Below are positions 1 through 62,546 of a stretch of 64,000 nt of DNA, one piece after another; position 1 is the first letter of the stretch; each line of letters begins with the position of its first letter. A program made the translations under genes and the position numbers. The notes beneath the pieces were generated by a model, which worked only from the letters and a program-made list of their open reading frames with translations, was not told the DNA's origin and did no database searches. This DNA comes from an uncultured Desulfovibrionaceae bacterium (GTDB lineage Bacteria > Bacillota > Dethiobacteria > DTU022 > UBA8154): contig CAZOOA010000001.1 in NCBI GenBank assembly GCA_964581355.1, positions 46,922 to 110,921 of the forward strand. Direction: 5' to 3'.

Positions 1-451
1 CTCCTTTAAAAAATATGTAGGGAAAAAAGGATAGGCTTGCTACGAAAAGCTGGTTCATTCATCAGGGTTTCTCCGTAATTTTTATTAATTCTATTTAACC
101 TTATCCAGTTAAAAAAATCCATCCTTCGAAAGTATGATTTTGCAGCAAAACAGCAGCAAAATAGCAGGAAAATAGAGTTTTAACCTTAGATATATCAGTT
201 CCGGTTAGGTGAGTAGCGCAGAAAACCATCGCTTGAATCTAAAGGAAGGTTTTTCATCTTCTGTTGGCCCGTAAGGGTTGTGGCGGACAGTATAAGCTTT
301 CCCCGGCCGGTCTGCAAAGGTGTGCCTTCTGCTGCAGTGCAAGTGGCAGGCATTCACGCCTATCGGGAAGCATAAAAAAGATGATACATTTTAAGGACCG
401 AATAGCTTATAATAGATTATAGAAAACACCTGATTATTTGTAGAGGGGCCT

Positions 452-2527
452 GTGATGACGGATATTTTGGAAAGAGCAAAAGAGCTATTGGACGTGCTGT
501 TTGCAAAAGTGGTTGACCTGGATTTGCTGGAAACTATGGGAAGTTTCTTTTTGCAATTCCAATTACTGGCGGAAATATATACGCTGGTCGTCAGGTGGGT
601 TTTCCCCCTGCTGGCTCTAATCATTTTTATTCGTTGTCTCCGGCCCCTGCTGCAGGAACGCAGGGGCAGCGCTGTATGGGGATACCTGCAGATGAAGGAT
701 GGGACCCGTTTACCCCTTCGGCACTGGGAAAACTCTATCGGGCGGAGCAGGCTTTCCGATCTTGTGTTAGACTTTCCCTTTATCTCCAGGAGCCATGCTG
801 TGCTTACCTTTCGCCAGGGTGCTTGGTCGGTTGCCGACCTGAATTCAAAAAATGGGGTGAAGGTAAACGGGGTGGAGGTGGAGCAGGCGGAGACCGTGGA
901 GCACGGGGACACAATTTCCCTGGGGGGTCTGGAGCTGGAGCTGGACTTGACCAACAAAAAATCGTCCGGGAACCGGCAGCAAAATGACAGGTCCAAGCCT
1001 GAATCCATGCCTGCGCCGCCGCAGTCATCTCCGGCGCCACCACTGCCATCTCCAAGAGCCGTGCCCGGTTCCGACCCTGCAGAAAGTTCCATGCGCCCAA
1101 CCAAGCCGGGAGTCCATGGATCCCCTAGCGAAAAGAACAAATCTGCCGGAAGATCTGAAGTAGATGCTATGGGAAAATCTGCCGCCCGCGGCGAAGCAAG
1201 GGGGCAGGGCAAGCCTGGTAGCCGGGGTAAAACCGGCAGAGGGATCCGACCCGGCAAAAAGTTTAATGCTGCTTCAACATTGCTGCTGATCCTGCTTTTT
1301 CAGCTCCTGGGAGCTCTTCAGCTCTGTTTTTCCATGGGCGACGAAGTTAATCCAGCAGTACCCTTGACTTTTTGCCTGTTCATTCTTGCCCAAATTTTGC
1401 ATTACGGGATTATGCGCTTGATCAGCCGTAATTATATCGAGTTTGAATTGCTCTGCTATTTTCTCTGCGGCTTAAGCTTGTTCGTTGTGGCCTCGGCAGC
1501 ACCCGGTGCCCTGTTTAAACAATTGGGTGCTATTGTGGGTGGAATGACGGTGTATACGGTGCTGGGGCTGATGCTGCGCGATCTGGGGCAGGCCGGCAGG
1601 CTAAAATATCTCTTTATTGCGGTTGCCCTTGTCCTCCTGGTTTTAAACCTGGTTATGGGAGAGACACGTTTTGGGGCGAAACGCTGGATTGACCTGGGCC
1701 TGATCACCTTTCAGCCTTCGGAGTTTGTAAAAATTGCTTTTGTCCTGGCTGGCACGGCAACCCTGGATAAACTGCTGACAACCCGGGATATGACCGCATT
1801 TATTGTTTTTGCCAGTGTATGCATCGGTGTCATGGTCCTGATCCGGGATTTTGGCACTGTGTTGGTCTTTTTTGGTGCCTTTATCGTGATCGCTTTTATG
1901 CGCTCGGGCGATCTGCGGACCATTGCCTTTGCCCTGGCCGGGGCTGCCCTGGGAAGTGTAGCTGCGGTGTCTTTTATGCCCTATATTGCTTCCCGCATTG
2001 CCACCTGGGGCAATGTTTGGGAGTATGCCAGCACTTCGGGCTACCAGCAGACGCGCACATTGATTGCCGCTGCCAGCGGCGGCCTCTTGGGTGTCGGTGG
2101 CGGACATGGCTACCTGGCTCAGATAGCAGCAGCCGATACCGATTTAATCTTCGGCATCCTCTGCGAGGAGTGGGGATTGGTCGTTGCGCTGACGGCAGTT
2201 TCAATCATGGTATTTTACGCTTTTTATGCTGTATTGCTTACTAGAAACTGCCGTTCCTCTTTCTATGCGATTGCCTCCTGCGGGGCGGCAGCTATCTTTT
2301 TGCTGCAGACAGCATTGAATGTCCTGGGTTCCGTCGATATTCTCCCCTTTACGGGATTAACGGTGCCCTTTATCTCCAGGGGAGGTTCTTCCATGGTGGC
2401 CTCCTGGGGACTGTTGGCCCTGATTCAATCGGCTGATGAGCGCGGCAGGCCGGGTAAAGCGGGCTTTTCCGGCAAGAAGAAAAAAAAGGTTAAAAAGATA
2501 ATCCATGAAGAAGGTGATCGAGGGTGA
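452..2527 (+). CDS. FHA-domain::SEDS (FtsW/RodA/SpoVE family) fusion; peptidoglycan polymerase with N-terminal phosphothreonine-binding module
   Basis: The 691-aa ORF has an N-terminal FHA signature (GRS...SRSHAVL...NSKNGVKVNG). This is followed by a Pro/Ser/Gly-rich linker and then a roughly 10-TM SEDS domain (ITFQPSEFVKIAFVLAG...). An RBS (AGAGGGG) lies 7 nt before the ATG at 452. An alternative internal start at 692 (MKDG) is possible. Confidence 0.75.
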   Translation: MMTDILERAKELLDVLFAKVVDLDLLETMGSFFLQFQLLAEIYTLVVRWVFPLLALIIFIRCLRPLLQERRGSAVWGYLQMKDGTRLPLRHWENSIGRSRLSDLVLDFPFISRSHAVLTFRQGAWSVADLNSKNGVKVNGVEVEQAETVEHGDTISLGGLELELDLTNKKSSGNRQQNDRSKPESMPAPPQSSPAPPLPSPRAVPGSDPAESSMRPTKPGVHGSPSEKNKSAGRSEVDAMGKSAARGEARGQGKPGSRGKTGRGIRPGKKFNAASTLLLILLFQLLGALQLCFSMGDEVNPAVPLTFCLFILAQILHYGIMRLISRNYIEFELLCYFLCGLSLFVVASAAPGALFKQLGAIVGGMTVYTVLGLMLRDLGQAGRLKYLFIAVALVLLVLNLVMGETRFGAKRWIDLGLITFQPSEFVKIAFVLAGTATLDKLLTTRDMTAFIVFASVCIGVMVLIRDFGTVLVFFGAFIVIAFMRSGDLRTIAFALAGAALGSVAAVSFMPYIASRIATWGNVWEYASTSGYQQTRTLIAAASGGLLGVGGGHGYLAQIAAADTDLIFGILCEEWGLVVALTAVSIMVFYAFYAVLLTRNCRSSFYAIASCGAAAIFLLQTALNVLGSVDILPFTGLTVPFISRGGSSMVASWGLLALIQSADERGRPGKAGFSGKKKKKVKKIIHEEGDRG

Positions 2528-3897
2528 AACTGATCTCCAGCCGTGCTTTTGTCTTGCTGATACTTTCCCTGCTGCTGGTTACGGGTCTTTTGGCCTTTAC
2601 CCTGGAGTTCTTCAGTAATGCCTCTACATGGGCACTGCATCCAGCCAACAGGCACCTGTATGCCAATGGGAAACTGGCCAGCTCAGGGACCATTTATGAC
2701 CGGAGAGGCGAGGTTCTCATGCAGACGGTGGACGGGGAAATAAGCTACCATGAGGATAAGACGGTGCGCACAGCCCTGATGCATGCCACGGGGGACCCGG
2801 GCAGCAATGTGGCTACCGGCGCCCAAGTCGTTTTCCGGGACCGGCTCAGCGGTTGGAATGTTTTTAAGGGCGCCTACCGCTTTGGGGGCTGGGCAAGCTC
2901 CGGAAAGGACCTGACCTTAACCCTCGATGCTGATTTATCCGCCGTAGCCTACCGCGCTTTGGATGGGCGCCGGGGCACGGTTGGTGTCTATAACTACAGG
3001 ACGGGGGAGATCCTCTGCATGGTCAGTTCGCCTTCTTTTGATCCGGCAAGCCCTTCCGATGTGCAGGCTCATCCCCAGCGCTACGAAGGGGTTTACCTGA
3101 ACCGGTTTCTTTCGGCCAGGTATACCCCGGGGTCCATCTTCAAGCTGGTTACAGCGGCAGCCGCTATTGACCGGTTCGGCGACCTGGATCAGGTGCACTA
3201 TCACTGTGAGGGTAAAATACCTGTTGGTGAAGACATGGTTACCTGCATGTCGGCCCATGGTGATGTAGACCTGGGGCAATCCTTGGCCGATTCGTGCAAC
3301 GTGGCCTTTGCTGAGATCACCCTTGAACTGGGGGCGAATACGTTGCAGAAGTATGCGGACCGGACCGGCTTTAACTCGGCTGTGCTGGTTGACGGTATTC
3401 AGACGGCTACAGGTCATGTGGATGTCTCCCGGGCGAAGGGAGCCAACCTGGCCTGGGCGGGTATTGGGCAGTACACCAATACGGTTAATCCGTTAAATTT
3501 TATGGTTTTTATGGGGGCCATCGGCAACGACGGGGTGGGTATTACACCAAGCATTTTGCGAAACGAAGGGCCTCTTTCGCCTCTTCGAAATCTTTTCCAG
3601 GAAAAAAATCGGATGCTCCCGGCAGAAACTGCCGCCATACTGGGGGAGATGATGCGCAATAACACCATCAGTGCTTATGGTGAAGAGCGTTTCCAGGGCC
3701 TGGAGCTCTGCGCCAAATCCGGGACTGCTGAAGTGGGTGGCGGGAAAACGCCTCACGCCTGGTTCGCGGGTTTTTTGGACCGGGATGATTATCCCCTGGC
3801 TTTTGTTGTCATCGTTGAAAACGGCGGTTCCGGGAACCGGGTTGCCGGTCCCGTGGCGGCAACCGTCCTGAAGGCGGCGGTAGAAAGTGAATTGTAA
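2524..3897 (+). CDS. class B penicillin-binding protein (PBP2-type transpeptidase)
   Basis: The 457-aa ORF has an N-terminal TM segment and an SxxK active-site motif (GSIFK), in a PbpA/MrdA-like fold. Its ATG overlaps the stop of the upstream SEDS gene (ATGA), indicating translational coupling. Confidence 0.8.
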   Translation: MKLISSRAFVLLILSLLLVTGLLAFTLEFFSNASTWALHPANRHLYANGKLASSGTIYDRRGEVLMQTVDGEISYHEDKTVRTALMHATGDPGSNVATGAQVVFRDRLSGWNVFKGAYRFGGWASSGKDLTLTLDADLSAVAYRALDGRRGTVGVYNYRTGEILCMVSSPSFDPASPSDVQAHPQRYEGVYLNRFLSARYTPGSIFKLVTAAAAIDRFGDLDQVHYHCEGKIPVGEDMVTCMSAHGDVDLGQSLADSCNVAFAEITLELGANTLQKYADRTGFNSAVLVDGIQTATGHVDVSRAKGANLAWAGIGQYTNTVNPLNFMVFMGAIGNDGVGITPSILRNEGPLSPLRNLFQEKNRMLPAETAAILGEMMRNNTISAYGEERFQGLELCAKSGTAEVGGGKTPHAWFAGFLDRDDYPLAFVVIVENGGSGNRVAGPVAATVLKAAVESEL

Positions 3898-4036: not shown

Positions 4037-4561
4037 GTGAATGGTGAAATGGAGCAATACGGGCAGGTTGTGGATTTAACCAGCGATAAAAAAGCCCTGG
4101 TCAAGGTCAGGCAGCATCTGTCCTGTGAAAATTGCGGACGCTGTGGGGCGGCGACATTTTTCGGTGATCCCAGCAAGCGCAAGCTGGAAAACCTGGTAGA
4201 AGTATTAAACCCCATCGGTGCAGGACGGGGAGAGTTGGTGCGCCTGGAAGCACGGGCCAGTGAAATGCTCCTGGCTGCGTTCCTTCTGTATATTGTCCCC
4301 TTGTTGGCCCTGTTAGGCGGCCTTTTCGGTGGCAGGAGTATTGCTATCAGTCAGGAGCTTTCAGGCAGTCCCGACCTTTGGGGGGCCTTGATCGGGTTGG
4401 TGGTCATGGTTGCAGTTTTCCTGGTATTACGGGCCAAAGATGCCCAGTTTGCCAGTGGGACCCGCTTCAAGGCAGTCATTACAGCTGTGGTGGATGAATC
4501 GGAGATCCCCGAGGAAGCACGCCTGGTGGAACAAGAAGGGGACGAAGAGTGCGCTGAATAA
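4037..4561 (+). CDS. RseC/MucC-family protein (SoxR-reducing system component-like)
   Basis: The 174-aa ORF has an N-terminal CxxCxxC-containing domain (SCENCGRCGAATFF) followed by two TM helices, as in the RseC/MucC architecture. Confidence 0.6.
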   Translation: MNGEMEQYGQVVDLTSDKKALVKVRQHLSCENCGRCGAATFFGDPSKRKLENLVEVLNPIGAGRGELVRLEARASEMLLAAFLLYIVPLLALLGGLFGGRSIAISQELSGSPDLWGALIGLVVMVAVFLVLRAKDAQFASGTRFKAVITAVVDESEIPEEARLVEQEGDEECAE

Positions 4562-4680: not shown

Positions 4681-4918
4681 GTAGGAGCCGGATGAGGCGA
4701 GAGTTTCTCCTCTGATTCCTGGAGGGAGTGGGGATGAAACTCCCGCGCTCTACCGTCACTATCCTTCCACATGCTTTTGTCCATGCTGCCGGGGAGATCT
4801 CCGGAGCCCACCGGGTCTCACCGGGGACAGCGAAGCGTAGCGCGTTTCGCAAGCTCCAGCCCTCTTGACTGATAACAGCTGTCCAAAAACGGTTTTCATC
4901 ATGTGGAAAGAACTGTTG

Positions 4919-4947
4919 TTGCAAAAAGTGAATGGTTGTGTTAAAAT
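4919..4947 (+). promoter_or_regulatory. sigma-A type promoter (TTGCAA-17 bp-TAAAAT) driving the lysine-riboswitch/lysA transcript
   Basis: The -35 hexamer TTGCAA (4919-4924), a 17-bp spacer and the -10 hexamer TAAAAT (4942-4947) are visible directly in the sequence. Confidence 0.5.
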
Positions 4948-4974
4948 ACCTTGCAAATTAAAATTACCTCATCT

Positions 4975-5262
4975 CTTCGAGCCGGGGTGGGGTAGAGGTG
5001 CGGCTGGCAAAGAGTATGTTCGAGAAAAGACGGTCCTTGATGAAACGGACAGAAAGGTGCCGCCGCCGAAGTTTTTGGTCCAAGGCCGGAGGCCAGAAGC
5101 TGGTTTGCCAGTGAATAACTGGCAAACTGTCACCCGTTCGAAAGGCCCTTTTCCCGGGTGGAGCGCTATCTCGCTGTGGGCATTTTTGAGGTTGCTTCTT
5201 GCGGTTTAAAGCGGCTACGGGTTTATCGTTGGTCGCTTTTTTGTTTTAAAATTTCCCTGAGG
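4975..5262 (+). promoter_or_regulatory. lysine riboswitch (L-box) with expression platform upstream of lysA
   Basis: The conserved L-box blocks are present in order: AGAGGTGCG, AAAGAGTATG, GAGAAAAGA, GAAAGGTGCCGCCGCCGAAG and GAGCGCTATCTCGCTG. They are collinear with the B. subtilis lysC leader and lie immediately 5' of lysA. Confidence 0.8.
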
Positions 5263-5272
5263 GGGTGGATGT

Positions 5273-6577
5273 ATGATCATGTCCGGTTCGATGGAAATCA
5301 ATGCAAAAGGGAACCTGGAAATCGGGGGTTGCGATACGGTAGAACTGGCTAAACAGTTCGGGACGCCCCTGTTCGTGATGGATGAAGAACAGATCCGAAA
5401 TAACTGCAGGCAGTATGTGAATGCCTTGAAAAAGCACTACCCGAAGGGGATGGTATTGTTTGCCGGTAAGGCTTTCTTAACCCTGGCCATGACCCGCCTG
5501 GTACACGAGGAAGAAATGGGGTTGGACGTGGTTTCCGGGGGCGAACTTTTTACGGCAGTGAACGCCGGTTTTCCCGTGGAGCGGATTTATTACCACGGAA
5601 ACAACAAGTCGACCCGTGAGTTAGTCGACGCCATTAAGTCCGGGGTGGGCCGGATCGTTGTGGACAGTATCCCGGAACTGGAAGAAATTAAAGAACTGTC
5701 GGCCCAGTTTGCAGAGGGCAAGGTCTCGGTGCTCCTGCGCCTCAAGCCCGGTGTGGAAGCCCATACCCATGAATATATTTCTACAGGGCAGGAGGACTCC
5801 AAGTTCGGCTTTGGCCTAGCGGACGACAGTGCCATGGAGGCGGTGGAGTCCTGCCTGAAAGCTTCAGATTTGATTGACCTGAGAGGATTTCACTGTCATA
5901 TCGGCTCGATGATCTTCCAGCTGGAACCTTTTTCCGTTGCCACCCGGGTGATGGTGGAGTTTATGGACCGGGTCCGGGACAAAACCGGTTTTGTGGCCGA
6001 AGAACTGGATATGGGCGGTGGCTTGGGTATCCGCCACAAGCAGGAAGACGACCCTCCTTCCATTGAGAGGTTCGTGGAAAATATTGCCCTGACGTTGAAA
6101 AGCGCCTGCCAGAAACAGGATTTTCCCCTGCCCGAGTTGATGCTGGAGCCCGGGCGTTCCATTACGGGGGAAGCCGGAGCAACACTTTATACGGTAGGTG
6201 TGATTAAGGATATTCCGGGGATCCGGCGCTATGTTTCCGTTGACGGGGGCATGATGGACAATATCCGGCCGGCTCTTTACAGCGCGAAATATGAAGCAGC
6301 TATCTGCAACAAAATAGGCCAGGAGTCCGGGGAGCTGGTTACGCTGGCCGGGAAAGCCTGCGAGTCCGGGGATATTTTGATCCGGGATATTTATCTGCCG
6401 CCCCTGGAAAGCGGTGATATTGTTGCTGTATTCAGCACAGGCGCCTACTGTTATTCCATGTCCAGCAATTACAACCGGAATCCCCGCCCGGCTGTCGTTT
6501 TTGTCCGTAACGGTGAGCCGAGGATTGTTGTGCGCAGGGAATCGTACGAGGATTTGATTGCGCTGGATGTATTGTAG
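5273..6577 (+). CDS. lysA: diaminopimelate decarboxylase
   Basis: The 434-aa ORF is a PLP-dependent group IV decarboxylase and sits downstream of the L-box. Confidence 0.9.
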   Translation: MIMSGSMEINAKGNLEIGGCDTVELAKQFGTPLFVMDEEQIRNNCRQYVNALKKHYPKGMVLFAGKAFLTLAMTRLVHEEEMGLDVVSGGELFTAVNAGFPVERIYYHGNNKSTRELVDAIKSGVGRIVVDSIPELEEIKELSAQFAEGKVSVLLRLKPGVEAHTHEYISTGQEDSKFGFGLADDSAMEAVESCLKASDLIDLRGFHCHIGSMIFQLEPFSVATRVMVEFMDRVRDKTGFVAEELDMGGGLGIRHKQEDDPPSIERFVENIALTLKSACQKQDFPLPELMLEPGRSITGEAGATLYTVGVIKDIPGIRRYVSVDGGMMDNIRPALYSAKYEAAICNKIGQESGELVTLAGKACESGDILIRDIYLPPLESGDIVAVFSTGAYCYSMSSNYNRNPRPAVVFVRNGEPRIVVRRESYEDLIALDVL

Positions 6578-6630: not shown

Positions 6631-7479
6631 ATGATATTTACCAAGATGCACGGCCTGGGCAACGATTTTATTGTTGTAGATAACCTGGAAGGGCAGCACA
6701 GTCCGGAAGAGATGGCGAAAAAAGCTCCATCACTCTGCCACAGGCATTTTGGTATCGGTGCAGACGGCCTGGTCCTGCTGAACACTTCACGGGAAGCTCC
6801 TTTTGCCATGCAGATCTTTAACCCCGACGGTAGTGAGGCGGAGATGTGCGGTAATGCCATCCGCTGCCTGGGCAAGTATGTCTGGGACCGGAAGATGATT
6901 AACGGGGACAGGGTTTCCATCCAGACCGGTGCCGGGATTATGGAGTTGGCATTGAATATCCAGGGTTCGGAGGTAAAAGGGATCCGGGTGAACATGGGAC
7001 AGCCGATCCTGGACAGCCAGCAGATTCCCGTAGCAGGTCCTGAGCGAAAAGTGATCGATGAGCCCATTACCGCCGGGGACAAGACCTTTAAGTGCACCGC
7101 AGTAAGTATGGGCAACCCCCACTGCATCATTTTTGTGGACTCCCTGGAAGATATCCCCTGGAAAACATGGGGCCCTTTGCTGGAGAACCATAGCATGTTT
7201 CCCCGGCGGACCAACGTGGAATTTGTAGAAATCCTTGGGCCAGGCGAAGTCCGGGTCAATGTTTGGGAGAGAGGGGCAGGCCCAACTTTGGCCTGCGGTA
7301 CCGGGGCCTGCGCTACAACTGTGGCGGGTGTTATTACAGGGCGCCTGGAAGAAAATGTTGTAGTCCACCTTCCCGGGGGCACCCTGACTATTCAATGGAA
7401 GCAAGGGCAGCCTGTTTATATGGAGGGTCCTGCTGAGGAAGTATACCGGGGGGAAGTCTCTTTGGAGCGCATACAGTAA
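6631..7479 (+). CDS. dapF: diaminopimelate epimerase
   Basis: The 282-aa ORF has the N-terminal MIFTKMHGLGNDF motif and catalytic Cys motifs (CGNA, CGTGACA). Confidence 0.9.
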   Translation: MIFTKMHGLGNDFIVVDNLEGQHSPEEMAKKAPSLCHRHFGIGADGLVLLNTSREAPFAMQIFNPDGSEAEMCGNAIRCLGKYVWDRKMINGDRVSIQTGAGIMELALNIQGSEVKGIRVNMGQPILDSQQIPVAGPERKVIDEPITAGDKTFKCTAVSMGNPHCIIFVDSLEDIPWKTWGPLLENHSMFPRRTNVEFVEILGPGEVRVNVWERGAGPTLACGTGACATTVAGVITGRLEENVVVHLPGGTLTIQWKQGQPVYMEGPAEEVYRGEVSLERIQ

Positions 7480-7706
7480 AAAGACTGTTCTTTCTAATTG
7501 CACTTTGCCCTGGAATAGCGCTTAAATGTTTTGATCCATTAGATATTGAAGCTCGGGCTTCATTGATGTTTGCCCAGAACATAACTTTTGTTGTATATAA
7601 TTCCGCGCGCTTCAGATCACTTTTTTCATCTTTCTGCTGGTAAAGCGGAACATCATAGATGTCTTATGGGTTATTGAAATTATCTTTCTTTAGGAGGGCA
7701 TGCTCT

Positions 7707-8885
7707 ATGAACGAACAAACATCAGAAAGAATTCGCCAGCTACCCCGGTATTTGTTTGCTGAGATCGACAAGAAGATTAAAGAGGCCATGAACAAGGGAG
7801 TCGATGTGATCAAGCTGGGTATCGGCGATCCCGACACCCCGACGCCAGACTATATCATCGAGCGCATGAAGGAAGAAGTGGCCAAGCCCCGCAATCATAC
7901 CTATCCTCCCGATGAAGGGTTGCAGGAATTCAGGGAAGCGGTGGCTGCTTATTACCAGAAAAGGCACAAAGTGGACCTGGACCCCGAGACCGAGGTCCTT
8001 CCCTTAATCGGTTCCAAGGAGGGTATTGCTCACATTGCCTTTTGCTTTACCGATCCCGGTGATGTGAACCTGGTGCCTGATCCCGGGTATCCTGTATATG
8101 GTATCGGGACCAAGTTTGCCGGGGGAGCTCCTCACCTGATGCCCCTGGTCAAAGAAAATGATTTTCTGCCCGTTTTTGACCATATCCCGGAAGAGGCCGC
8201 TCAAAAAAGCAAGCTTTTGTTTTTAAACTACCCCAACAACCCCACTGGCGCTGTTGCCTCCCCGGAGTTTTTCCAGGAAGCGGTGCAGTATGCCAAAAAA
8301 CATAACCTGGTTGTCTGCCATGATGCCGCCTACAGCGAGGTGGCCTTTGACGATTACGAGCCCTTAAGCTTCCTCGAGGTGGACGGGGGCAAGGATGTAG
8401 CCATCGAGTTTGGCTCCCTGGCCAAGACATTTAACATGACCGGGTGGCGGATTGGGTATGCCGTGGGCTGCCGGCAGGCCGTGGAAGCCCTGTACCGGTT
8501 TAAAACCAATGTAGATTCCGGGCTATTCAAGGCCATTCAGTACACAGGGGTGGAGGCGTTGAGCAATCCCAAAATGGAGCCCTTTATCAAGGAACTGCGG
8601 GAAATGTACCGTGAAAGGCGTGATGTGGTGGTCGATGCACTTCAGGAAGCGGGTTGGCCCATTGAAGCGCCCCGGGGCACTTTTTATGTCTGGGCACCTG
8701 TCCCCAAGGGCTACACCTCCCAGGATTTTGTAGCCCACCTGCTGGAAGAGACGGGGGTTGTAGTCACCCCGGGCAAAGGATTTGGTGAGCACGGTGAAGG
8801 ATATTTCCGCATTGCCCTGACCGTGGACAAGAACAGGATGCGTGAAGCCATGGAGCGGATTAAAAACACGGTTCAGTTTCGCTAA
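7707..8885 (+). CDS. dapL: LL-diaminopimelate aminotransferase (DapL-type class I aminotransferase)
   Basis: The N-terminus reads RYLFAEIDKKI...KLGIGDPD and the fold is aminotransferase class I/II. It is flanked by dapF/lysA upstream and asd/lysC downstream. The start was moved to the ATG at 7707, which has a GGAGGG RBS; the ORF-track start is 7659. Confidence 0.7.
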   Translation: MNEQTSERIRQLPRYLFAEIDKKIKEAMNKGVDVIKLGIGDPDTPTPDYIIERMKEEVAKPRNHTYPPDEGLQEFREAVAAYYQKRHKVDLDPETEVLPLIGSKEGIAHIAFCFTDPGDVNLVPDPGYPVYGIGTKFAGGAPHLMPLVKENDFLPVFDHIPEEAAQKSKLLFLNYPNNPTGAVASPEFFQEAVQYAKKHNLVVCHDAAYSEVAFDDYEPLSFLEVDGGKDVAIEFGSLAKTFNMTGWRIGYAVGCRQAVEALYRFKTNVDSGLFKAIQYTGVEALSNPKMEPFIKELREMYRERRDVVVDALQEAGWPIEAPRGTFYVWAPVPKGYTSQDFVAHLLEETGVVVTPGKGFGEHGEGYFRIALTVDKNRMREAMERIKNTVQFR

Positions 8886-40185: not shown

Positions 40186-40515
40186 AAAATTGCGAAAAAT
40201 GCAAGGGATATTCCCTACTGTGTGCGTGTAAAATCGCGAATGTTTTGAGCTAACACTAACGAAATGGGAGCCTGGACTTTACATGCGGCGCAGAAGCCTT
40301 GGTCGGAACGAGGACCTGCAAAGCATGTAAGAGGGCACCCACCTTGAGAGAGGGCGTTCAAAACAAGCGGTCCACGGCACAGTGGGGTTATTTTATTTGT
40401 GCCTGTTTTTACGATCAAGCCAGCAGAAAGCCCACGGCTTTAGCCGAGGGATGAATACTTAATAGACAGTTGACTTGATGGTTGAGTCGGGTATTTTGTT
40501 GCCGGGGGTGAGGAA

Positions 40516-43979: not shown

Positions 43980-46094
43980 ATGGCAAAACGAAAAGTTTCC
44001 AGTATGCAATTGAAAAAACGTCTTCTTTTTGTGTTTTTCTTTACGGTTATTTTGATGCTGGCCCTGGTATTACGTTTGGGTTGGATTCAATTCGTGATGG
44101 CAGAAGAGTTACAAGCCAAAGCGTGGGAGCAATGGAATCGCAGCATTCCGGCTCCTTCTTCCAGGGGTGATATTTATGACAGAGACGGTCAACTTCTGGC
44201 CGGCAGCGCGACAGTAGAAACCGTTGTAGCCATTCCCCCCCAGGTGAATGACCCGGCTTTTACAGCCAGAACTCTGGCTCCTGTGCTGGATATGAGCCAG
44301 GAGCGAATTTTTGAGCTGTTAACCCAGGAAAGAGCTGCTGTTTACCTGAAACGCAGGGTTGATGAAGAGGTGGCTGACGAAGTCCGAATACTCAACCTGC
44401 CCGGTATCACTTTTACCCAGGAGCCGAAGCGGTATTACCCTAATAGCAATTTGCTTTCGCAACTGCTGGGCTTTGTAGGGACGGACCAGGGTTGGGCCGG
44501 GCTGGAAGTATATTATGAAGAAGTTCTGGAAGGTCGAGACGGGAGTATCATGTACCCCACGGATAACAGGGGACGGGAAATACCCGGGGTTCGCCGTTTT
44601 ATCCCTCCCAAAGAAGGCAAGGACCTCCATCTTACGATTGATGAAACCATTCAATTCATCGTGGAAAGGGAGTTATCCCGGGCTATGGTGGAGTATGATC
44701 CCAAGCGGGTGATGGCCCTGGCTGTCAACCCCCAGTCGGGAGAAGTCCTGGCATCTGCCTCAAAACCGGATTTCGATCCCAACCGCTACAATGAATACAA
44801 CAATGACTACTGGCGCCTTTTTCCTGTCACAGATACGTTCGAACCCGGGTCAACCTTTAAACTCATTACCCTGGCAGCTGCCATGGAAGAGAATCTTTTT
44901 GACGAAAACGAACCTTTTTACTGCTCCGGTTCTGTCAAAGTGGCGGGACAGACTATCCGCTGCTGGACCTCCCATAAGGGAGGGCATGGTTCCATCGATT
45001 TTGCAGAAAGTGTCTATCATTCCTGCAACCCCGCTTTTATTGAACTGGGAGAGAAGCTGGGTGCGGAGCAATTGTTCGACTACATAAGAGCGTTTGGTTT
45101 TGGCTTGCCTACCGGTGTTGATTATCCCGGAGAAGGGCAGGGCCAAATATTCCGGCCGGAACAAATCGGTCCAGTTGAGCTGGCTACCTCTTCTTTTGGG
45201 CAGGGTCTTTCTGTTACACCCCTGCAGCAGGTGATGGCTGTATCCGCATTTGCCAACGGCGGTCGTTTGGTGCGTCCTTATTTTGTCCAGGAAATCACTG
45301 ATGGTGAAGGGGAAACCTTGTTTCAGCGGGAGCCGGAAGTTATCCGCCAGGTAATCTCAGCAAAAACAGCTGAGCGGGTGACCCGGACCATGGAAGGAGT
45401 TGTTGAAGAGGGAAGCGGAGTCAATGCCGGAATTGAAGGGTACCGGGTTGCCGGTAAAACAGGGACGGCGCAAAAAGTGTCTGAAGGAAGCTACGTGGCG
45501 GGTGAATATGTCCTTTCTTTTATTGGCTTCGCGCCTGTTGAAGATCCACAGGTTTTACTCTATGTGGCCATAGATGGGGCGAAGCGCGGACCCCAGTGGG
45601 GCTCCCAGGTTAGTGCGCCGCTTTTCCATTCAATTATGAAAGATGCGCTTTCATACCTGGAGATCCCTCCTTCCCAGATTCCGGAAGAAGATAATGACCA
45701 GGAGCCAGAGCGATTGGTAAACGTCCCTGATTTAAAAGGGCTTACGATGGATGAAGCCGGGGCGCTTTTGGATACCAAGGGGCTGCTGGTGCGACTGGTA
45801 GGCAATGATGGCGTGATCGTGGATCAAACCCCAAAAGCAGGGGCTCGTGTTCCCATGCAAACAAACATCGTCATTTACCTGGATGACCTGTTCAGGGAAG
45901 AGGCCGCAAATCAAATCGTTTTACCGGATTTGAAAGGGATGACGGTAAAAGAGGCCGGTGAAATCCTGGGTCATATCGGGTTAAAGATGGAACGGAAAGG
46001 ATCAGGAATTGTTTTTGACCAGGAACCTGCGCCAGGGACGTTAATTGAGCAGGATTCTGTGGTTCAGGTTCGCTTTTCGTCGCCCCTGGACTAA
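43980..46094 (+). CDS. class B penicillin-binding protein of the FtsI/PBP2B/SpoVD family with two C-terminal PASTA domains
   Basis: The 704-aa ORF has an N-terminal TM helix, a dimerisation domain, a transpeptidase domain (STFK, SCN, KTGT) and two C-terminal PASTA repeats. Confidence 0.85.
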   Translation: MAKRKVSSMQLKKRLLFVFFFTVILMLALVLRLGWIQFVMAEELQAKAWEQWNRSIPAPSSRGDIYDRDGQLLAGSATVETVVAIPPQVNDPAFTARTLAPVLDMSQERIFELLTQERAAVYLKRRVDEEVADEVRILNLPGITFTQEPKRYYPNSNLLSQLLGFVGTDQGWAGLEVYYEEVLEGRDGSIMYPTDNRGREIPGVRRFIPPKEGKDLHLTIDETIQFIVERELSRAMVEYDPKRVMALAVNPQSGEVLASASKPDFDPNRYNEYNNDYWRLFPVTDTFEPGSTFKLITLAAAMEENLFDENEPFYCSGSVKVAGQTIRCWTSHKGGHGSIDFAESVYHSCNPAFIELGEKLGAEQLFDYIRAFGFGLPTGVDYPGEGQGQIFRPEQIGPVELATSSFGQGLSVTPLQQVMAVSAFANGGRLVRPYFVQEITDGEGETLFQREPEVIRQVISAKTAERVTRTMEGVVEEGSGVNAGIEGYRVAGKTGTAQKVSEGSYVAGEYVLSFIGFAPVEDPQVLLYVAIDGAKRGPQWGSQVSAPLFHSIMKDALSYLEIPPSQIPEEDNDQEPERLVNVPDLKGLTMDEAGALLDTKGLLVRLVGNDGVIVDQTPKAGARVPMQTNIVIYLDDLFREEAANQIVLPDLKGMTVKEAGEILGHIGLKMERKGSGIVFDQEPAPGTLIEQDSVVQVRFSSPLD

Positions 46095-50404: not shown

Positions 50405-51811
50405 GTGAAGTCCCTGGTTGAGGGAAAAAAGATCCTGGTCTTAGGGTTGGCGAGAAGCGGCTTGGCAGCGGTTCATTTGTTATTGAAAGCAGGCGCATCA
50501 CACGTTATCGCCAATGACTATAAAAGCTTGGAACTGCTCCAGGATGCAGTTGATTCCTGGCGCGATGAAACAAGGGTTACCCTGGTTGGGGGAGGGCACC
50601 CCGTGCATCTCCTGGACGGGGTGGCCATGGTGGTCAAAAGCCCGGGAATCAGGCCGGATCTACCGATCCTGAAAAAAGCATACCGGCGTTCTATTCCTGT
50701 ATACTCTGAGGTTGAACTGGCTTCCTGGTTCAGCCCGGCAGTGATCCTCGGCATTACCGGAACCAATGGAAAAACAACGACCACGTCCCTGGTGGGGGAA
50801 ATATGTAAAAAACAATTCCCTACAGTTCATGTGGCTGGAAATATAGGCCATCCCCTTTGCGAGGCTGTCCTTGCTGCATGCCGGGAAGACCTGATTGTGG
50901 CCGAATTAAGCAGTTTTCAGCTGGAAAATACTGAAACATTCCGGGCTCCAGTTGCTGCTATCCTGAACATCACCTCTGATCATCTGGATTACCATGGTTC
51001 AATGGAGCGGTATGTTGAGGCCAAGGCCAGGATTTTAGACAATCAATGCTTGCATGACACAGCCATTTTAAACTATGATGATCCCAACGTGCGAAGGCTT
51101 GCTCCCCGGGTGAAAGGGAAACGATTGTTTTTCAGCCGGGCGGCTGAACTGGATGCAGGGGTTTTTTTGCGCCAGGACCGCATAGTAATAGTAGAAGACG
51201 GAAAGGAAGCTCTTGTTTGCCTGAAAAAGGATTTAAAGTTACCCGGTCCTCATAACCTGGAGAACGCATTAGCTGCTGCGGGTATTGCCTGGTCCGGGGG
51301 AGTTAAAATAGAGCATATCGGCCAGGTTTTGAGCAAGTTTAAAGGGGTTCCTCACCGCCTGGAGTTTGTAGGAGAAAAACAGGGCGTTGCCTTCATCAAT
51401 GATTCCAAGGGAACAAATCCCGAGGCAACTTTAATGGCTCTCGGCTCTTTTGCAGGGAAAAAAATCCTGATCGCCGGAGGCCTGGATAAAGGGGCCATGT
51501 TCCAACAACTGGCTGAAAAGCTCCAGGATGAAAATGTTTCTAGCCTTATCCTGCTGGGTGAAACAGCGCCTTTGATTCAAAGGGCAGCACATAAACAAGG
51601 TTTTGTCAACATTTTCATGGTTTCCACCATGCAGGAGGCAGTTGAGCAGGCTTTTCAACAGGCTTCGGCAGGGGATACAGTTCTGCTTTCGCCGGCCTGT
51701 GCCAGCTGGGATATGTTTGCCAGCTTTGAAGAGCGGGGAGATGCTTTTAAAAGGGCAGTTTCACAAATAGAGGAGAGCTTTCATGATGAAAAAAGCCCCT
51801 ACAAAGCATGA
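50405..51811 (+). CDS. murD: UDP-N-acetylmuramoylalanine--D-glutamate ligase
   Basis: Has the P-loop GTNGKTTTTS. GTG start. Confidence 0.9.
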   Translation: MKSLVEGKKILVLGLARSGLAAVHLLLKAGASHVIANDYKSLELLQDAVDSWRDETRVTLVGGGHPVHLLDGVAMVVKSPGIRPDLPILKKAYRRSIPVYSEVELASWFSPAVILGITGTNGKTTTTSLVGEICKKQFPTVHVAGNIGHPLCEAVLAACREDLIVAELSSFQLENTETFRAPVAAILNITSDHLDYHGSMERYVEAKARILDNQCLHDTAILNYDDPNVRRLAPRVKGKRLFFSRAAELDAGVFLRQDRIVIVEDGKEALVCLKKDLKLPGPHNLENALAAAGIAWSGGVKIEHIGQVLSKFKGVPHRLEFVGEKQGVAFINDSKGTNPEATLMALGSFAGKKILIAGGLDKGAMFQQLAEKLQDENVSSLILLGETAPLIQRAAHKQGFVNIFMVSTMQEAVEQAFQQASAGDTVLLSPACASWDMFASFEERGDAFKRAVSQIEESFHDEKSPYKA

Positions 51812-52901
51812 AGAAAAAAAATCACCGGATTTCTCTATCTTTTTTACCGTGTTAATTTTAACCGGGTTCGGACTGGTGATGGTTTTTAGCGCCAGCTATA
51901 TTACTTCCCTTGAATCCCGGGGGGACGCCTTCTTTTTTCTTCGTCGCCAGGCGTTCTGGTTGATTCTGGGCCTGGTGGGTATGCTGGCAGCTTCCAGTTT
52001 TGATTATTGGAAGTGGCGTAAACTGTTACCTCTTTTGCTTCTTTTAAACTTTGTGCTGCTGCTGCTGATTTTTGTGCCTGGTGTCGGGATCGAAGTCAAC
52101 CAGGCCAGGCGCTGGATCGGTTTGGGCGCTTTTAATGTTCAGCCGGCTGAGTTTAGCAAGCTGGTCATGATAATTTTTTCAGCGGCTTTTTTAAGCAAAA
52201 AGAACCTGGATATGCAAAATTTTTGGCACAGCAGTTTTGTGCCGCTGGCATTTATGGGCGCTTCTTTCCTGTTAATCCTGCTACAGCCCGACCTGGGGAC
52301 GGCCCTGGCACTGGCCCTGGTGACTTTGACGATTATTTTTTCCGCGGGTATTCCCTGGAAACATTTAACGGCACTGATGGCAGCAGGTGTTCCCTTTGTG
52401 TTTTACCTGATGTTGAGTGAACCATATCGCATCCGGCGGATCTTTTCCTTCCTGGATCCCTGGGCTGATCCACTGCATTCCGGTTACCATATTATCCAAT
52501 CTCTTTATGCCTTGGGTCCCGGTGGGCTGTTTGGAGTGGGTCTGGGAAGAAGCAGGCAGAAGCTTTATTACCTGCCGGAGCCACAAAATGACTTTATTTT
52601 TGCTATTATCGGTGAAGAACTGGGTTTTCTGGGCGCTGTAACCATTATGCTGCTCTTTTTTATTCTGATCTGGAGAGGGTTTAAAACCTCTCTGCTGGCA
52701 CCTGATAACTTTGGCAGTCTTTTGGCTGTAGGAATTACTACCATGGTTGCCGTCCAGGTGCTGATTAATGTCGGTGTAGTCACAGGGTCCATCCCCATCA
52801 CAGGCATAAACCTTCCCTTTATCAGTGCCGGGGGCAGTTCCCTGTTTTTCACCATGGTTGCCATGGGAATTCTGATGAATATTTCCAGGCATTCCCGGTA
52901 A
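51783..52901 (+). CDS. SEDS-family peptidoglycan polymerase FtsW/SpoVE
   Basis: The 372-aa ORF has 10 TM helices and FtsW/RodA/SpoVE motifs. Its position between murD and murG is consistent with ftsW (spoVE in sporeformers). Confidence 0.85.
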   Translation: MMKKAPTKHEEKKSPDFSIFFTVLILTGFGLVMVFSASYITSLESRGDAFFFLRRQAFWLILGLVGMLAASSFDYWKWRKLLPLLLLLNFVLLLLIFVPGVGIEVNQARRWIGLGAFNVQPAEFSKLVMIIFSAAFLSKKNLDMQNFWHSSFVPLAFMGASFLLILLQPDLGTALALALVTLTIIFSAGIPWKHLTALMAAGVPFVFYLMLSEPYRIRRIFSFLDPWADPLHSGYHIIQSLYALGPGGLFGVGLGRSRQKLYYLPEPQNDFIFAIIGEELGFLGAVTIMLLFFILIWRGFKTSLLAPDNFGSLLAVGITTMVAVQVLINVGVVTGSIPITGINLPFISAGGSSLFFTMVAMGILMNISRHSR

Positions 52902-59935: not shown

Positions 59936-60037
59936 CCAAAGCCAGATTGTAACAAAATTTTAAAGGCCTGGCCTTTATAATGATAATTAGATGGAATCTT
60001 GATTTTGGTCCGCTGGTGGCAGGCAGGTGACCATTGT

Positions 60038-60955
60038 ATGTACCTGGACCTGGTAATCATTTTGAACATTATTGTGAACACCTTTTTACTTGCCCTGACC
60101 GGTTTTATCGCTCGTCAAAGAACCACTTCCTTAAGGGTGCTGTCCGGCGGTATTCTGGGAGCCTCCTGCTTGCTTTTCTTATACGAGCCTGGGATTGTGC
60201 CGTTTGTGTCGGTGTTTCGCTTCCTGCTGCCATTTTTAATGCTTTGGGTTGCTTTCCGTCCCCGTTGTTGGGAACATTTTTTGTTGTTGTTTTTCGTTTT
60301 TACCCTGACCACCTTTCTCTTCGGTGGTATTATAATCTCCTTCAGCGCTGTAATTGCCCATTCCCAGCAAAATATTGCGGAAAGCAGCCTTTATGCCGTG
60401 CCGTCTGTACCATTTTTTATAATTGCCGCTTCCGGGCTTTACCTGTTCCTTCGCTTCCTGGTTTACCCACTGTTGTCCCGGCGGCTTCGTTTTCGCCTGC
60501 CTTCATCAACATTGGCACTGGAACTTGTTTTTCAAGGCAAAAAGAAAACGATGCATGCTTACCTGGATACAGGAAATATGCTCAAGGAACCCTTTACCGG
60601 CATGCCAGTAGCCGTGGCAGCGTATTCTGCGGTGCAGGATTTGCTGCCCCGAGGGGTTTGTGAACTTATCCGCCAATCCCCTGGTCTGGACTGGATGAAA
60701 ATGGAGAATGTCTATAAACAGCTGGACCAACCGGAAATATTTACCTGGGTTCCTTACCATAGCATTGGTGGCAGTGGTTTCCTGCTGGCGTTCAAACCTG
60801 AACAGGTAAGTGTTTGGAATGGAACACAGTGGACCGCAGTGTCCAACACGCTGCTGGTTGCCATTAAAGAAAAGCCTGGTGTAGTTTCAGGAGAGGATTT
60901 TGAAATTCTTTTGCCTCTGGAAATATGGTTGCAAGTGGAGGCCGGGGAGTGTTGA
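60038..60955 (+). CDS. spoIIGA: sporulation sigma-E factor-processing peptidase SpoIIGA
   Basis: Has a 5-TM N-terminal domain and a C-terminal aspartic protease motif (YLDTGN). The start at 60038 follows an AGGCAGGTGA RBS. Confidence 0.85.
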
Positions 60956-60960
60956 ACAAA

Positions 60961-61692
60961 ATGGAAAAAATGAAACGTCGTTACTGGAATGTAAGGCTTA
61001 AGCTGCTTCATTTAACCCGAAAGTTTGGTTTAAGCTATGGGAAAATTATTTACTATGTCAGCAACAACAAAGCGTTGCCACCGCCACTTACACGGGAAGA
61101 GGAGTCTTCACTGCTGGAACAATTAAAGACAGGCGATGAGCAGGTTCGCACCTCATTAATCGAAAGGAACCTCCGGTTGGTAGTCTATATTGCAAGAAAG
61201 TTTGAAAATACGGGACTGGCAGTGGACGATCTGGTGTCTATTGGGACCATTGGACTGATTAAAGCGGTTAATACATTTGATCCTCATAAGAACATTAAGC
61301 TGGCCACTTACGCTTCAAAATGTATTGAAAATGAAATATTAATGTATTTGAGGCGGAACAACAAACTTAAAGCGGAAATATCTTTCGATGAACCCTTGAA
61401 TGTGGACTGGGACGGAAACGAATTGCTCCTTTCTGATGTGCTGGGTACGGAAGATGATCTGGTTATTCGCAACCTTGAAGAGGAAGTGGATAGGAAACTT
61501 CTCTACATGGCTATTGACAAGCTTTCCGCCAGGGAAAAAAAGATTATGCAATTACGATTTGGTTTACACAACAGGCAGGAAAAAACACAGAAAGAAGTCG
61601 CTGAGCTGTTAGGTATTTCTCAGTCTTATATTTCCCGACTGGAAAAAAGAATCATCAAAAGGTTGAAAAAAGAGATAAAAAAAATGGAATAA
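60961..61692 (+). CDS. sigE: RNA polymerase sporulation sigma factor SigE (pro-sigma-E)
   Basis: Has a pro-sequence followed by [11 protein letters not shown], and sigma-70 regions 2-4. The start is 60961 or 60970. Confidence 0.9.
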
Positions 61693-61775
61693 TAACATCT
61701 GGAATAAAAACAGATTTGGGAGGAAATAATTTAAATGTAAATAAAGTCAATGTTCAACAGGGAGAGGATCGATCA

Positions 61776-62546
61776 GTGAACAAGGTTGAAATATGTGGAG
61801 TGAATACTGCCAAACTTCCCGTGTTGACCAATAATGAGATGCGCCAGTTATTTGTTCAGGTTCAGGAGGGAAACAGCAAGGCCAGGGAAAAACTGATCAG
61901 TGGCAACTTAAGGCTGGTTTTGAGTGTCATCCAGCGTTTTCATAACCGGGGTGAGCTGGTAGATGACCTTTTCCAGGTAGGTTGTATCGGGTTAATTAAG
62001 GCGATCGACAATTTTGACCTGGAACAAAATGTCAAGTTTTCCACTTATGCAGTTCCGATGATTATCGGTGAAATCCGCCGCTATCTTCGTGATAACACTC
62101 CTGTAAGGGTAAGTCGTTCCCTGCGGGATATTGCCTACAAGGTTTTGCAGGTCAGGGATCACATGGCCCATAAAATGTCCCGAGAACCCAGCCTGGAAGA
62201 AATAGCCAGGGAACTGGATTTCAGCAGGGAAGAAATAATTCTGGCCCTGGATTCCATCCAGGAACCGGTTTCTTTATTTGAGCCTATCTATCATGACGGT
62301 GGAGATCCTATTTTTGTCATGGATCAAATAAGCGATGAAAAAAATTGCGATGAAAAATGGCTGGAAGTATTATCGATCAAAGATGCCTTACACCAGCTGA
62401 ACGACAGGGAAAAGAACATTTTAATGCTGCGATTTTTTCGGGGCAAAACACAAATGGAGGTTGCTGAAGAAATAGGTATTTCCCAGGCCCAGGTATCCAG
62501 GCTGGAAAAATCAGCATTAACTCAAATTCGGAAAAATATTCAATGA
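61776..62546 (+). CDS. sigG: RNA polymerase sporulation sigma factor SigG
   Basis: Reads VNKVEICGVNTAKLPVLTNNEMRQLF... with sigma-70 regions 2-4. The GTG start at 61776 follows an AGGGAGAGG RBS. The ORF-track start is 61716. Confidence 0.9.
   Translation: MNKVEICGVNTAKLPVLTNNEMRQLFVQVQEGNSKAREKLISGNLRLVLSVIQRFHNRGELVDDLFQVGCIGLIKAIDNFDLEQNVKFSTYAVPMIIGEIRRYLRDNTPVRVSRSLRDIAYKVLQVRDHMAHKMSREPSLEEIARELDFSREEIILALDSIQEPVSLFEPIYHDGGDPIFVMDQISDEKNCDEKWLEVLSIKDALHQLNDREKNILMLRFFRGKTQMEVAEEIGISQAQVSRLEKSALTQIRKNIQ

Follow-up and report, generated by a model that had tools for sequence, protein, structure and literature searches.

The closest described counterpart of the system reported here is the actinobacterial locus fhaA-fhaB-pstP-rodA-pbpA-pknA-pknB (Rv0014c-Rv0020c in Mycobacterium tuberculosis), in which genes for FHA proteins, a SEDS polymerase, and a short PbpA transpeptidase stand in this order (PMC6554272; bioRxiv 10.1101/2024.08.13.607006). 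A pknB-fhaA cluster is reportedly also conserved in a subset of Firmicutes (PMC6554272). In M. tuberculosis, FhaA binds the phosphorylated PknB substrates MviN (a flippase) and CwlM (bioRxiv 10.1101/2024.08.13.607006), as well as the phosphorylated juxtamembrane domain of PknB itself (PMC12077195). The main paper on the function of FhaB (FipA) has been retracted (PMC2797604), so little solid knowledge of this protein can be transferred to other systems. In this work, we analyzed a 64,000-nt stretch of DNA (hereafter, the window) from an uncultured bacterium of the GTDB lineage Dethiobacteria, DTU022, UBA8154, phylum Bacillota (assembly GCA_964581355.1, contig CAZOOA010000001.1, positions 46,922 to 110,921 of the forward strand). 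Nucleotides 455-3897 of the window are best explained as an operon of two genes that together encode a RodA/PbpA-type peptidoglycan synthase, consisting of a SEDS protein fused to an FHA domain and a penicillin-binding protein (bPBP) that belongs to class B. With a probability of roughly 60%, this operon represents a fused, kinase-unlinked Clostridial counterpart of the FhaB/RodA/PbpA module, in which the membrane-anchored FHA domain would serve to dock the synthase to a partner close to the membrane that is phosphorylated on Thr.

The comparison with the actinobacterial locus had been drawn in an earlier annotation of the same DNA, made from the letters alone (the sequence-only reading), and it is correct (PMC6554272). 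The order of the FHA, SEDS, and short PbpA modules is shared. Unlike in Actinobacteria, the FHA domain is here covalently fused to the SEDS protein via an additional transmembrane helix (TM0) and a linker. The module differs further in that motif searches of the window and of about 80 related loci showed no linkage to a PP2C phosphatase and a PASTA kinase, the host is a member of Bacillota of the endospore-former type, and the protein does not reach the equivalog cut-offs for FhaB, RodA, or FtsW.

Another point of comparison is the M. tuberculosis ABC transporter Rv1747, in which, as here, an N-terminal FHA domain is attached to a polytopic membrane protein via a disordered linker. Regulation of Rv1747 acts through the FHA domains and through phosphorylation of the linker. 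Unlike the protein described here, it is an exporter and has no transmembrane (TM) helix before the FHA domain, while the linker of the window protein contains no conserved Thr. Structures of the Rv1747 FHA domains (6cah and 6ccd) were among the sequence matches of the FHA region.

Canonical SEDS-bPBP pairs, such as RodA-PBP2 of Thermus thermophilus (6pl5), FtsW-FtsI of Pseudomonas aeruginosa (8bh1), and a pair encoded in the dcw cluster of the same window, share with the new system the SEDS fold, the catalytic motifs, and the pairing with a bPBP, but they lack the FHA domain and TM0, and their partner PBPs carry a pedestal domain. A survey published in Microlife in 2025 (PMC12516126) described bPBPs of the PBPA_dimer type without a pedestal in Actinomycetota and Bacillota, along with chimeric SEDS fusions; unlike the fusion described here, these are bPBP-SEDS chimeras, and neither "FHA" nor "forkhead" occurs in the text of the survey. 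A full-text literature search found no paper describing an FHA-SEDS fusion, although an earlier passing mention in older reviews is possible.

Gene organization and the PbpA-type partner

The fusion gene lies within a single uninterrupted open reading frame (ORF) of the plus strand (452-2527 in the ORF list), encoding 690 amino acids from ATG455 or 691 from GTG452; residues of the fusion protein are numbered from GTG452 (Table 1). ATG455 is the likelier start and GTG452 merely the start of the longest ORF, since the Shine-Dalgarno sequence GAGGGG is separated by 6 nt from ATG455 and by just 3 nt from GTG452, and the exact 690-aa product is present in public gene calls (contig PWGP01000249.1 of GCA_003555305.1 and Logan assemblies of SRR9330139 and SRR9330141). 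Pfam searches identified in this one polypeptide an FHA domain at aa 95-158 (64.4 bits, E=1.3e-17; the gathering threshold of PF00498 is 20.7 bits) and an FTSW_RODA_SPOVE domain at aa 357-662 (PF01098, 191.9 bits, E=2.1e-56; cut-off 26.4 bits). The composition proposed in the sequence-only reading, a single polypeptide made up of an FHA domain, a Pro/Ser/Gly linker, and a SEDS core, is thus borne out, including the Pfam call of FHA, which had been named there as the check to be made.

The PBP gene is translationally coupled to the FHA-SEDS gene: the start codon of the former overlaps the stop codon of the latter, and its Shine-Dalgarno sequence resides within the 3' end of the SEDS gene. An overlap had been noted before as ATGA; the overlap itself stands, while its actual sequence is GTGA with a GTG start. 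The encoded bPBP, previously called PBP2-type, is of the PbpA type, since it carries a short N-terminal module rather than a pedestal (Pfam found no match to the pedestal domain PBP_dimer, PF03717) and the nearest structures are PbpA-like. The best solved relatives were the Coriobacteriia PbpA-like proteins 4mnr (aligned over aa 38-454), 4jbf, 4ra7, and 4n1x, followed by PbpA of M. tuberculosis (3un7/3lo7). The PBPA_dimer domain (PF21922/IPR054120) was not reported by Pfam at E<=0.01, and the N-terminal region of the protein aligns to 4mnr from residue 38.

A sigma-70 scan upstream of position 455 revealed a single weak plus-strand site (109-138), and inspection of this region by eye for sporulation-sigma motifs gave none that was convincing; therefore, no claim is made on the timing of expression. 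The Rfam scan found no RNA element upstream of or inside the operon.

Table 1. Features of the FHA-SEDS/PbpA operon and of other loci in the 64,000-nt window (nt, window coordinates; aa of the fusion protein counted from GTG452)
Feature	Position (nt)	Strand	Basis
Shine-Dalgarno GAGGGG of the FHA-SEDS gene	443-448	+	read from sequence
FHA-SEDS fusion gene	455-2527	+	ORF; Pfam FHA and FTSW_RODA_SPOVE
N-tail, aa 1-41, acidic, predicted helical and extracytoplasmic	452-574	+	charge count, AlphaFold2
TM0, aa 42-60, extra membrane helix anchoring FHA	575-631	+	hydropathy, conservation, pLDDT
FHA domain, aa 77-165 (Pfam core aa 95-158)	680-946	+	Pfam, AlphaFold2, Foldseek
Disordered Pro/Ser/Gly/Arg-rich cytoplasmic linker, aa 166-272	947-1267	+	AlphaFold2 pLDDT, composition
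SEDS glycosyltransferase core, aa 273-660	1268-2431	+	Pfam, alignment, Foldseek
Basic cytoplasmic C-tail, aa 661-691	2432-2524	+	11 K/R vs 5 D/E, no Thr
Shine-Dalgarno AAGGTGA of the PBP gene, within the 3' end of the SEDS gene	2511-2517	+	read from sequence
GTGA start/stop overlap (GTG 2524-2526, TGA 2525-2527)	2524-2527	+	read from sequence
bPBP gene, 457 aa, PbpA-type	2524-3897	+	Pfam Transpeptidase, PDB relatives
PBP N-terminal TM helix, aa 9-27	2548-2604	+	hydropathy/motif reading
PBP Transpeptidase domain, aa 151-449	2974-3870	+	Pfam PF00905, 148.8 bits, E=2.6e-43
PBP motifs S204-I-F-K, S257-C-N, K398-S-G	2524-3897	+	read from translation; SxxK/SxN/KSG intact
RseC_MucC gene, next after PBP	4037-4561		Pfam
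Lysine riboswitch	4985-5176	+	Rfam RF00168, 106.8 bits
dcw cluster SpoVD-like bPBP	43980-46094	+	673 bits, cut-off 688
dcw cluster FtsW/SpoVE-like SEDS	51783-52901	+	407 bits with the FtsW model, over its cut-off; 443 bits with SpoVE, slightly under
SpoIIGA-like, SigE, SigG genes after the dcw pair	59999-62546	+	

Predicted topology and structure of the fusion protein

Hydropathy analysis revealed one helix ahead of the FHA domain, TM0 (Kyte-Doolittle 2.33), which corresponds to the hydrophobic stretch noticed earlier, while the SEDS helices begin at aa 277. The N-tail contains 3 K/R and 8 D/E residues, and the 20 residues past TM0 contain 4 K/R and 1 D/E; among 119 homologues, over which residue conservation was computed, 109 have an N-tail of net negative charge and 114 a net positive segment past TM0. 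The positive-inside rule predicts an N-out/C-in orientation for TM0, and the FHA domain and the linker would therefore be cytoplasmic, which agrees with the cytoplasmic N-terminus required for the SEDS core. Judging by this charge pattern, the topology is simple rather than non-trivial, as had been supposed. Residues Y43, T44, R48, W49, and P52 of TM0 are at least 90% conserved.

An AlphaFold2 model was built from the 119-sequence alignment (mean predicted local distance difference test [pLDDT] score 73, predicted TM-score 0.76). It comprises helices at residues 2-22 and 26-67, with pLDDT of about 85-94 in TM0, the beta-sandwich of FHA (pLDDT 81-95), a disordered linker (aa 171-266, pLDDT <50), and the helical SEDS core, mostly with high pLDDT. 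Foldseek placed the FHA domain closest to that of M. tuberculosis FhaA (3poa/3po8/3oun; 34% identity, root-mean-square deviation 1.6 A over about 91 residues), of which 3oun was solved bound to the intracellular domain of MviN. The nearest structures, FhaA, GarA/OdhI, and EmbR, are true phosphothreonine-binding FHA domains. Of the NCBIfam FHA families, the best match was FhaB/FipA (NF049868, Rv0019c), although the equivalog cut-off was not reached (55.6 versus 125 bits) and the FHA part alone aligned (profile positions 76-158). The arrangement of a TM helix followed by FHA is analogous in layout to that of FhaB/FipA.

The linker (S16, P16, G14, and R10 among its residues) is 107 aa long, which makes it an outlier against the family median of 26 aa and points to a local peculiarity of this protein. 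The long Pro/Ser/Gly/Arg-rich insert was common only to a 94%-identical relative. In most family members, both ends of the FHA domain are tethered to the membrane: about 16 aa connect it to TM0, and a linker with a median length of 26 aa connects it to the first SEDS helix (TM1). These short tethers therefore position it at the inner membrane face beside the polymerase.

SEDS core

Foldseek comparison of the SEDS core gave target-normalised TM-scores of 0.76 to FtsW (8bh1) and 0.78 to RodA (6bas). Asp564 (nt 2141-2143), within AADTDLIF, aligns with the catalytic Asp of the HTDFVF motif of T. thermophilus RodA and P. aeruginosa FtsW, and Q421-P-S-E424-F-V-K427 (QPxExxK) aligns with QPLELAK and QPSEIAK of RodA and FtsW. 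The catalytic motifs thus look intact, and glycosyltransferase activity is predicted. The NCBIfam equivalog cut-offs were not reached for RodA (TIGR02210, 163.7 versus 336.7 bits) or FtsW (TIGR02614, 192.5 versus 337.5 bits). By its sequence, the FHA-SEDS protein is a divergent additional SEDS paralogue, since it scores 192 bits with the FtsW model, compared with 407 bits for the SEDS protein of the dcw cluster in the same window.

Distribution and conservation

The homologue search yielded 775 significant matches, and in all 120 of the best ones, which were checked for domains, both PF00498 and PF01098 were present. In a scan of GTDB with one genome per species, 293 genomes encoded a relative, and the 80 of them that were kept for analysis all belonged to Bacillota, namely Syntrophomonadaceae, Dethiobacteria, Anaerovoracaceae, and Oscillospiraceae. 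Among cultured or named carriers are Anaerovorax odorimutans DSM 5092, Sinanaerobacter chloroacetimidivorans, and Ca. Contubernalis alkaliaceticus; a further carrier is a metagenome-assembled genome (MAG) assigned to Dethiobacter alkaliphilus. The fusion design is common in Clostridia and defines a large, experimentally uncharacterised family of Bacillota. The unusualness implied in the sequence-only reading was therefore overstated. The architecture is already visible in public annotation, where RefSeq names the relatives "FtsW/RodA/SpoVE family cell cycle protein" and one homologue carries a JGI annotation that mentions FtsW as well as FHA.

In the FHA domain, G97, R98, S112, H115, and N139 (GR...SxxH...NG) are invariant in all 119 sequences, as are D564, Q421, P422, E424, and K427 in the SEDS core. 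In the related loci, a PbpA-like gene of about 455 aa follows the fused ORF wherever the contig is long enough. Of 69 such pairs, 27 overlap (25 of them by 4 nt) and 39 are separated by 0-30 nt, together making 66 of the 69. The conserved unit is therefore a two-gene cassette, since the flanking genes vary from locus to locus and, where annotated with Pfam, include no kinase or PP2C.

Unfused relatives and origin of the fusion

In distant Clostridia, the same modules were found as a trio of separate genes, namely in two Acutalibacteraceae MAG loci (L076 and L082) and two metagenome loci (L089 and L090). The first gene of each trio encodes a protein of 304-330 aa in which an N-terminal TM helix precedes two FHA domains; the second encodes a SEDS protein of 427-430 aa, and the third a PbpA-like PBP. 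Sequence identity of the match to the window protein is 33%. The three modules, their order, the tight spacing, and the TM0-then-FHA beginning are shared with the window; unlike in the window, the FHA protein is encoded by a separate gene and has two FHA domains and a Thr/Gln-rich linker, and the SEDS gene has its own start. The stand-alone TM-FHA-FHA proteins are encoded at positions 10010-10924 of L076 and 6001-6972 of L089. The linker between the FHA domains of the L076 protein is rich in Thr, Gln, and Pro, which brings to mind the phospho-regulated linkers of FHA proteins such as Rv1747.

Two apparent natural split versions with a single FHA domain were also considered and rejected, as they look like frameshift or low-coverage artefacts: in L025 the ORF terminates within FHA, at profile position 52 of 67, and in L088 the downstream call begins past TM1.

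A search with residues 2-176 against 1.84 billion cluster representatives returned 2,206 matches at E<=1e-10, and the match to TM0 and FHA begins at the N-terminus of many 155-400-aa proteins as well as of 580-780-aa fusions. On sequence grounds, the fused gene is best read as a TM-FHA gene joined to the following SEDS gene within a pre-existing TM-FHA/SEDS/PbpA cassette. This origin is partly shown; the arrangement runs parallel to fhaB...rodA-pbpA of Actinobacteria but is unlinked here from kinase and phosphatase genes.

Possible role of the FHA domain

Phosphothreonine binding by the FHA domain is most likely, since all phosphothreonine-contacting residues are invariant. The domain would bind phosphothreonine on a membrane-proximal partner, most probably the autophosphorylated juxtamembrane segment of a putative PASTA-type Ser/Thr kinase encoded elsewhere in the genome; alternatively, the partner could be a kinase substrate bound to the membrane, for example a flippase of the MurJ type. 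Such binding would recruit or activate the SEDS-PbpA synthase where and when the kinase signals. The stronger wording used previously, "direct Ser/Thr-kinase control," was derived from domain content and is not supported as stated.

Several observations weigh against docking onto a phosphorylated partner. The kinase link has no support from genomic context, because neither a kinase nor a PP2C gene was detected nearby in the window or in the relatives. A search for the Hanks motif [HY]RD[LIVMF]KPxN, a regular expression that could miss divergent kinases, found none in the window among ORFs of 90 aa or longer and none within 10 kb in about 80 related loci. No PP2C gene (motif DG[MVIL]GG) was found in the window either, which agrees with the earlier observation that no kinase or phosphatase is adjacent. 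Loose PP2C-like matches to DGxGG, which are unverified, occurred in three related loci (L024, L076, and L083), each more than 3.5 kb from the operon, and the Pfam-annotated neighbours of the examined related loci included no Pkinase or PP2C. A conserved phospho-acceptor Thr in the linker or the C-tail is ruled out by the alignment of 119 homologues, 28 of which lack any linker Thr and 59 any C-tail Thr, and the cytoplasmic tail of the PBP comprises only 8 aa without Thr. The FHA region also matches the Pfam family Yop-YscD_cpl with 49.3 bits. Finally, the SEDS core, scoring below the cut-offs, cannot be assigned to RodA or FtsW, so that its role could be in elongation, division, or another process.

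It is also conceivable, though improbable, that the FHA domain acts in cis, binding a phosphothreonine of its own synthase and thereby gating glycosyltransferase activity or the SEDS-PbpA interaction. The only conserved candidate for such a switch is T276 (nt 1277-1279), within T-L-L-L (TxxL) at the cytoplasmic mouth of TM1. Of the 119 fused homologues, 115 carry this Thr and 110 have Leu or Met at position +3; in the unfused SEDS protein of L076, a hand alignment places Ile here, although the comparison of fused and unfused proteins at this position rests on two unfused sequences. The short double tether, with its median linker of 26 aa, would keep FHA near TM1. However, TM1 is predicted to begin at aa 273, which places T276 in its first helical turn, and the residue may be poorly accessible to a kinase or represent a mere helix cap.

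A related but equally doubtful idea is that FHA, pinned between TM0 and TM1, serves as an allosteric switch, so that phosphothreonine binding would directly toggle glycan polymerisation. The ligand could be either the family-specific T276 or the juxtamembrane tail of a PASTA kinase. If true, this would be the first SEDS enzyme whose activity, and not just localisation, is read from Ser/Thr phosphorylation by its own domain.

Alternatively, the FHA fold might serve as a phosphorylation-independent module for protein-protein interaction or oligomerisation, as do the cytoplasmic FHA-like domains of YscD of type III or EssC of type VII secretion systems, with no kinase input. The Yop-YscD_cpl match and the absence of a linked kinase or phosphatase in any examined locus are in line with such a scaffold. 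It is nevertheless unlikely, given that the canonical phosphothreonine-binding residues are invariant, the Pfam score of FHA exceeds that of Yop-YscD_cpl, and the nearest structures are those of phosphothreonine-binding domains.

An annotation or assembly artefact, in the form of frameshift-merged genes or of a downstream start yielding a SEDS protein without FHA, is effectively refuted. Split ORFs occur in a few related contigs (L025 and L088), but the same continuous frame recurs in every one of the 120 best homologues and in about 70 assemblies made independently. Protein-level conservation extends to the N-tail, TM0, and FHA, a good Shine-Dalgarno sequence precedes ATG455, and any Met in the linker is present in just 32 of 119 homologues. 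The linker offers no start preceded by a Shine-Dalgarno sequence: from aa 160 to aa 290, a Shine-Dalgarno-like motif accompanies a single in-frame start, a non-conserved TTG at aa 166, the end of FHA.

Genomic context

The gene following the PBP encodes an RseC_MucC protein, as the sequence-only reading had suggested. RseC was rejected as a part of the system: it neighbours the cassette only in the window and in the 94%-identical relative and is missing from all other loci. The lysine riboswitch is located directly 5' of lysA (5273-6577), dapF (6631-7479), and a gene for LL-diaminopimelate aminotransferase (7659-8885); a listed ORF at 4865-5209 overlies this riboswitch and is probably spurious. 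This lysine/diaminopimelate operon, supplying peptidoglycan precursors, thus comes right after the synthase cassette. Upstream, past the left edge of the window, the source contig carries divergent genes (577-2604 of L084/L086, minus strand) for Cu_amine_oxidN1- and UGSC-domain proteins, which have no evident link to the cassette.

At least two SEDS-bPBP synthase pairs are encoded within the window, the FHA-SEDS/PbpA pair and that of the dcw cluster. The SpoIIGA-like, SigE, and SigG genes found in the window indicate that the host belongs to an endospore-forming lineage. A 6S RNA gene was identified at 40209-40392 on the plus strand (Rfam RF00013, 96.9 bits), in the gap past an ORF ending at 40099.

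Implications

How Ser/Thr kinases reach peptidoglycan polymerases is unclear, and in Actinobacteria cause and effect are difficult to tell apart, since the FHA readers, RodA, PbpA, the kinases, and the phosphatase are distinct proteins that have many partners. A reader domain fused to the polymerase presents a simpler system, with one polypeptide, a defined partner PBP, and cultured hosts such as A. odorimutans DSM 5092 and S. chloroacetimidivorans. The gain is incremental and not conceptual, as operon structure had already led to the expectation that FHA and RodA/PbpA are functionally linked. The division and elongation synthases of spore-forming Clostridia are currently under re-evaluation (PMC10693644), and the FHA-SEDS family adds to these bacteria a third, divergent class of SEDS-bPBP synthases.

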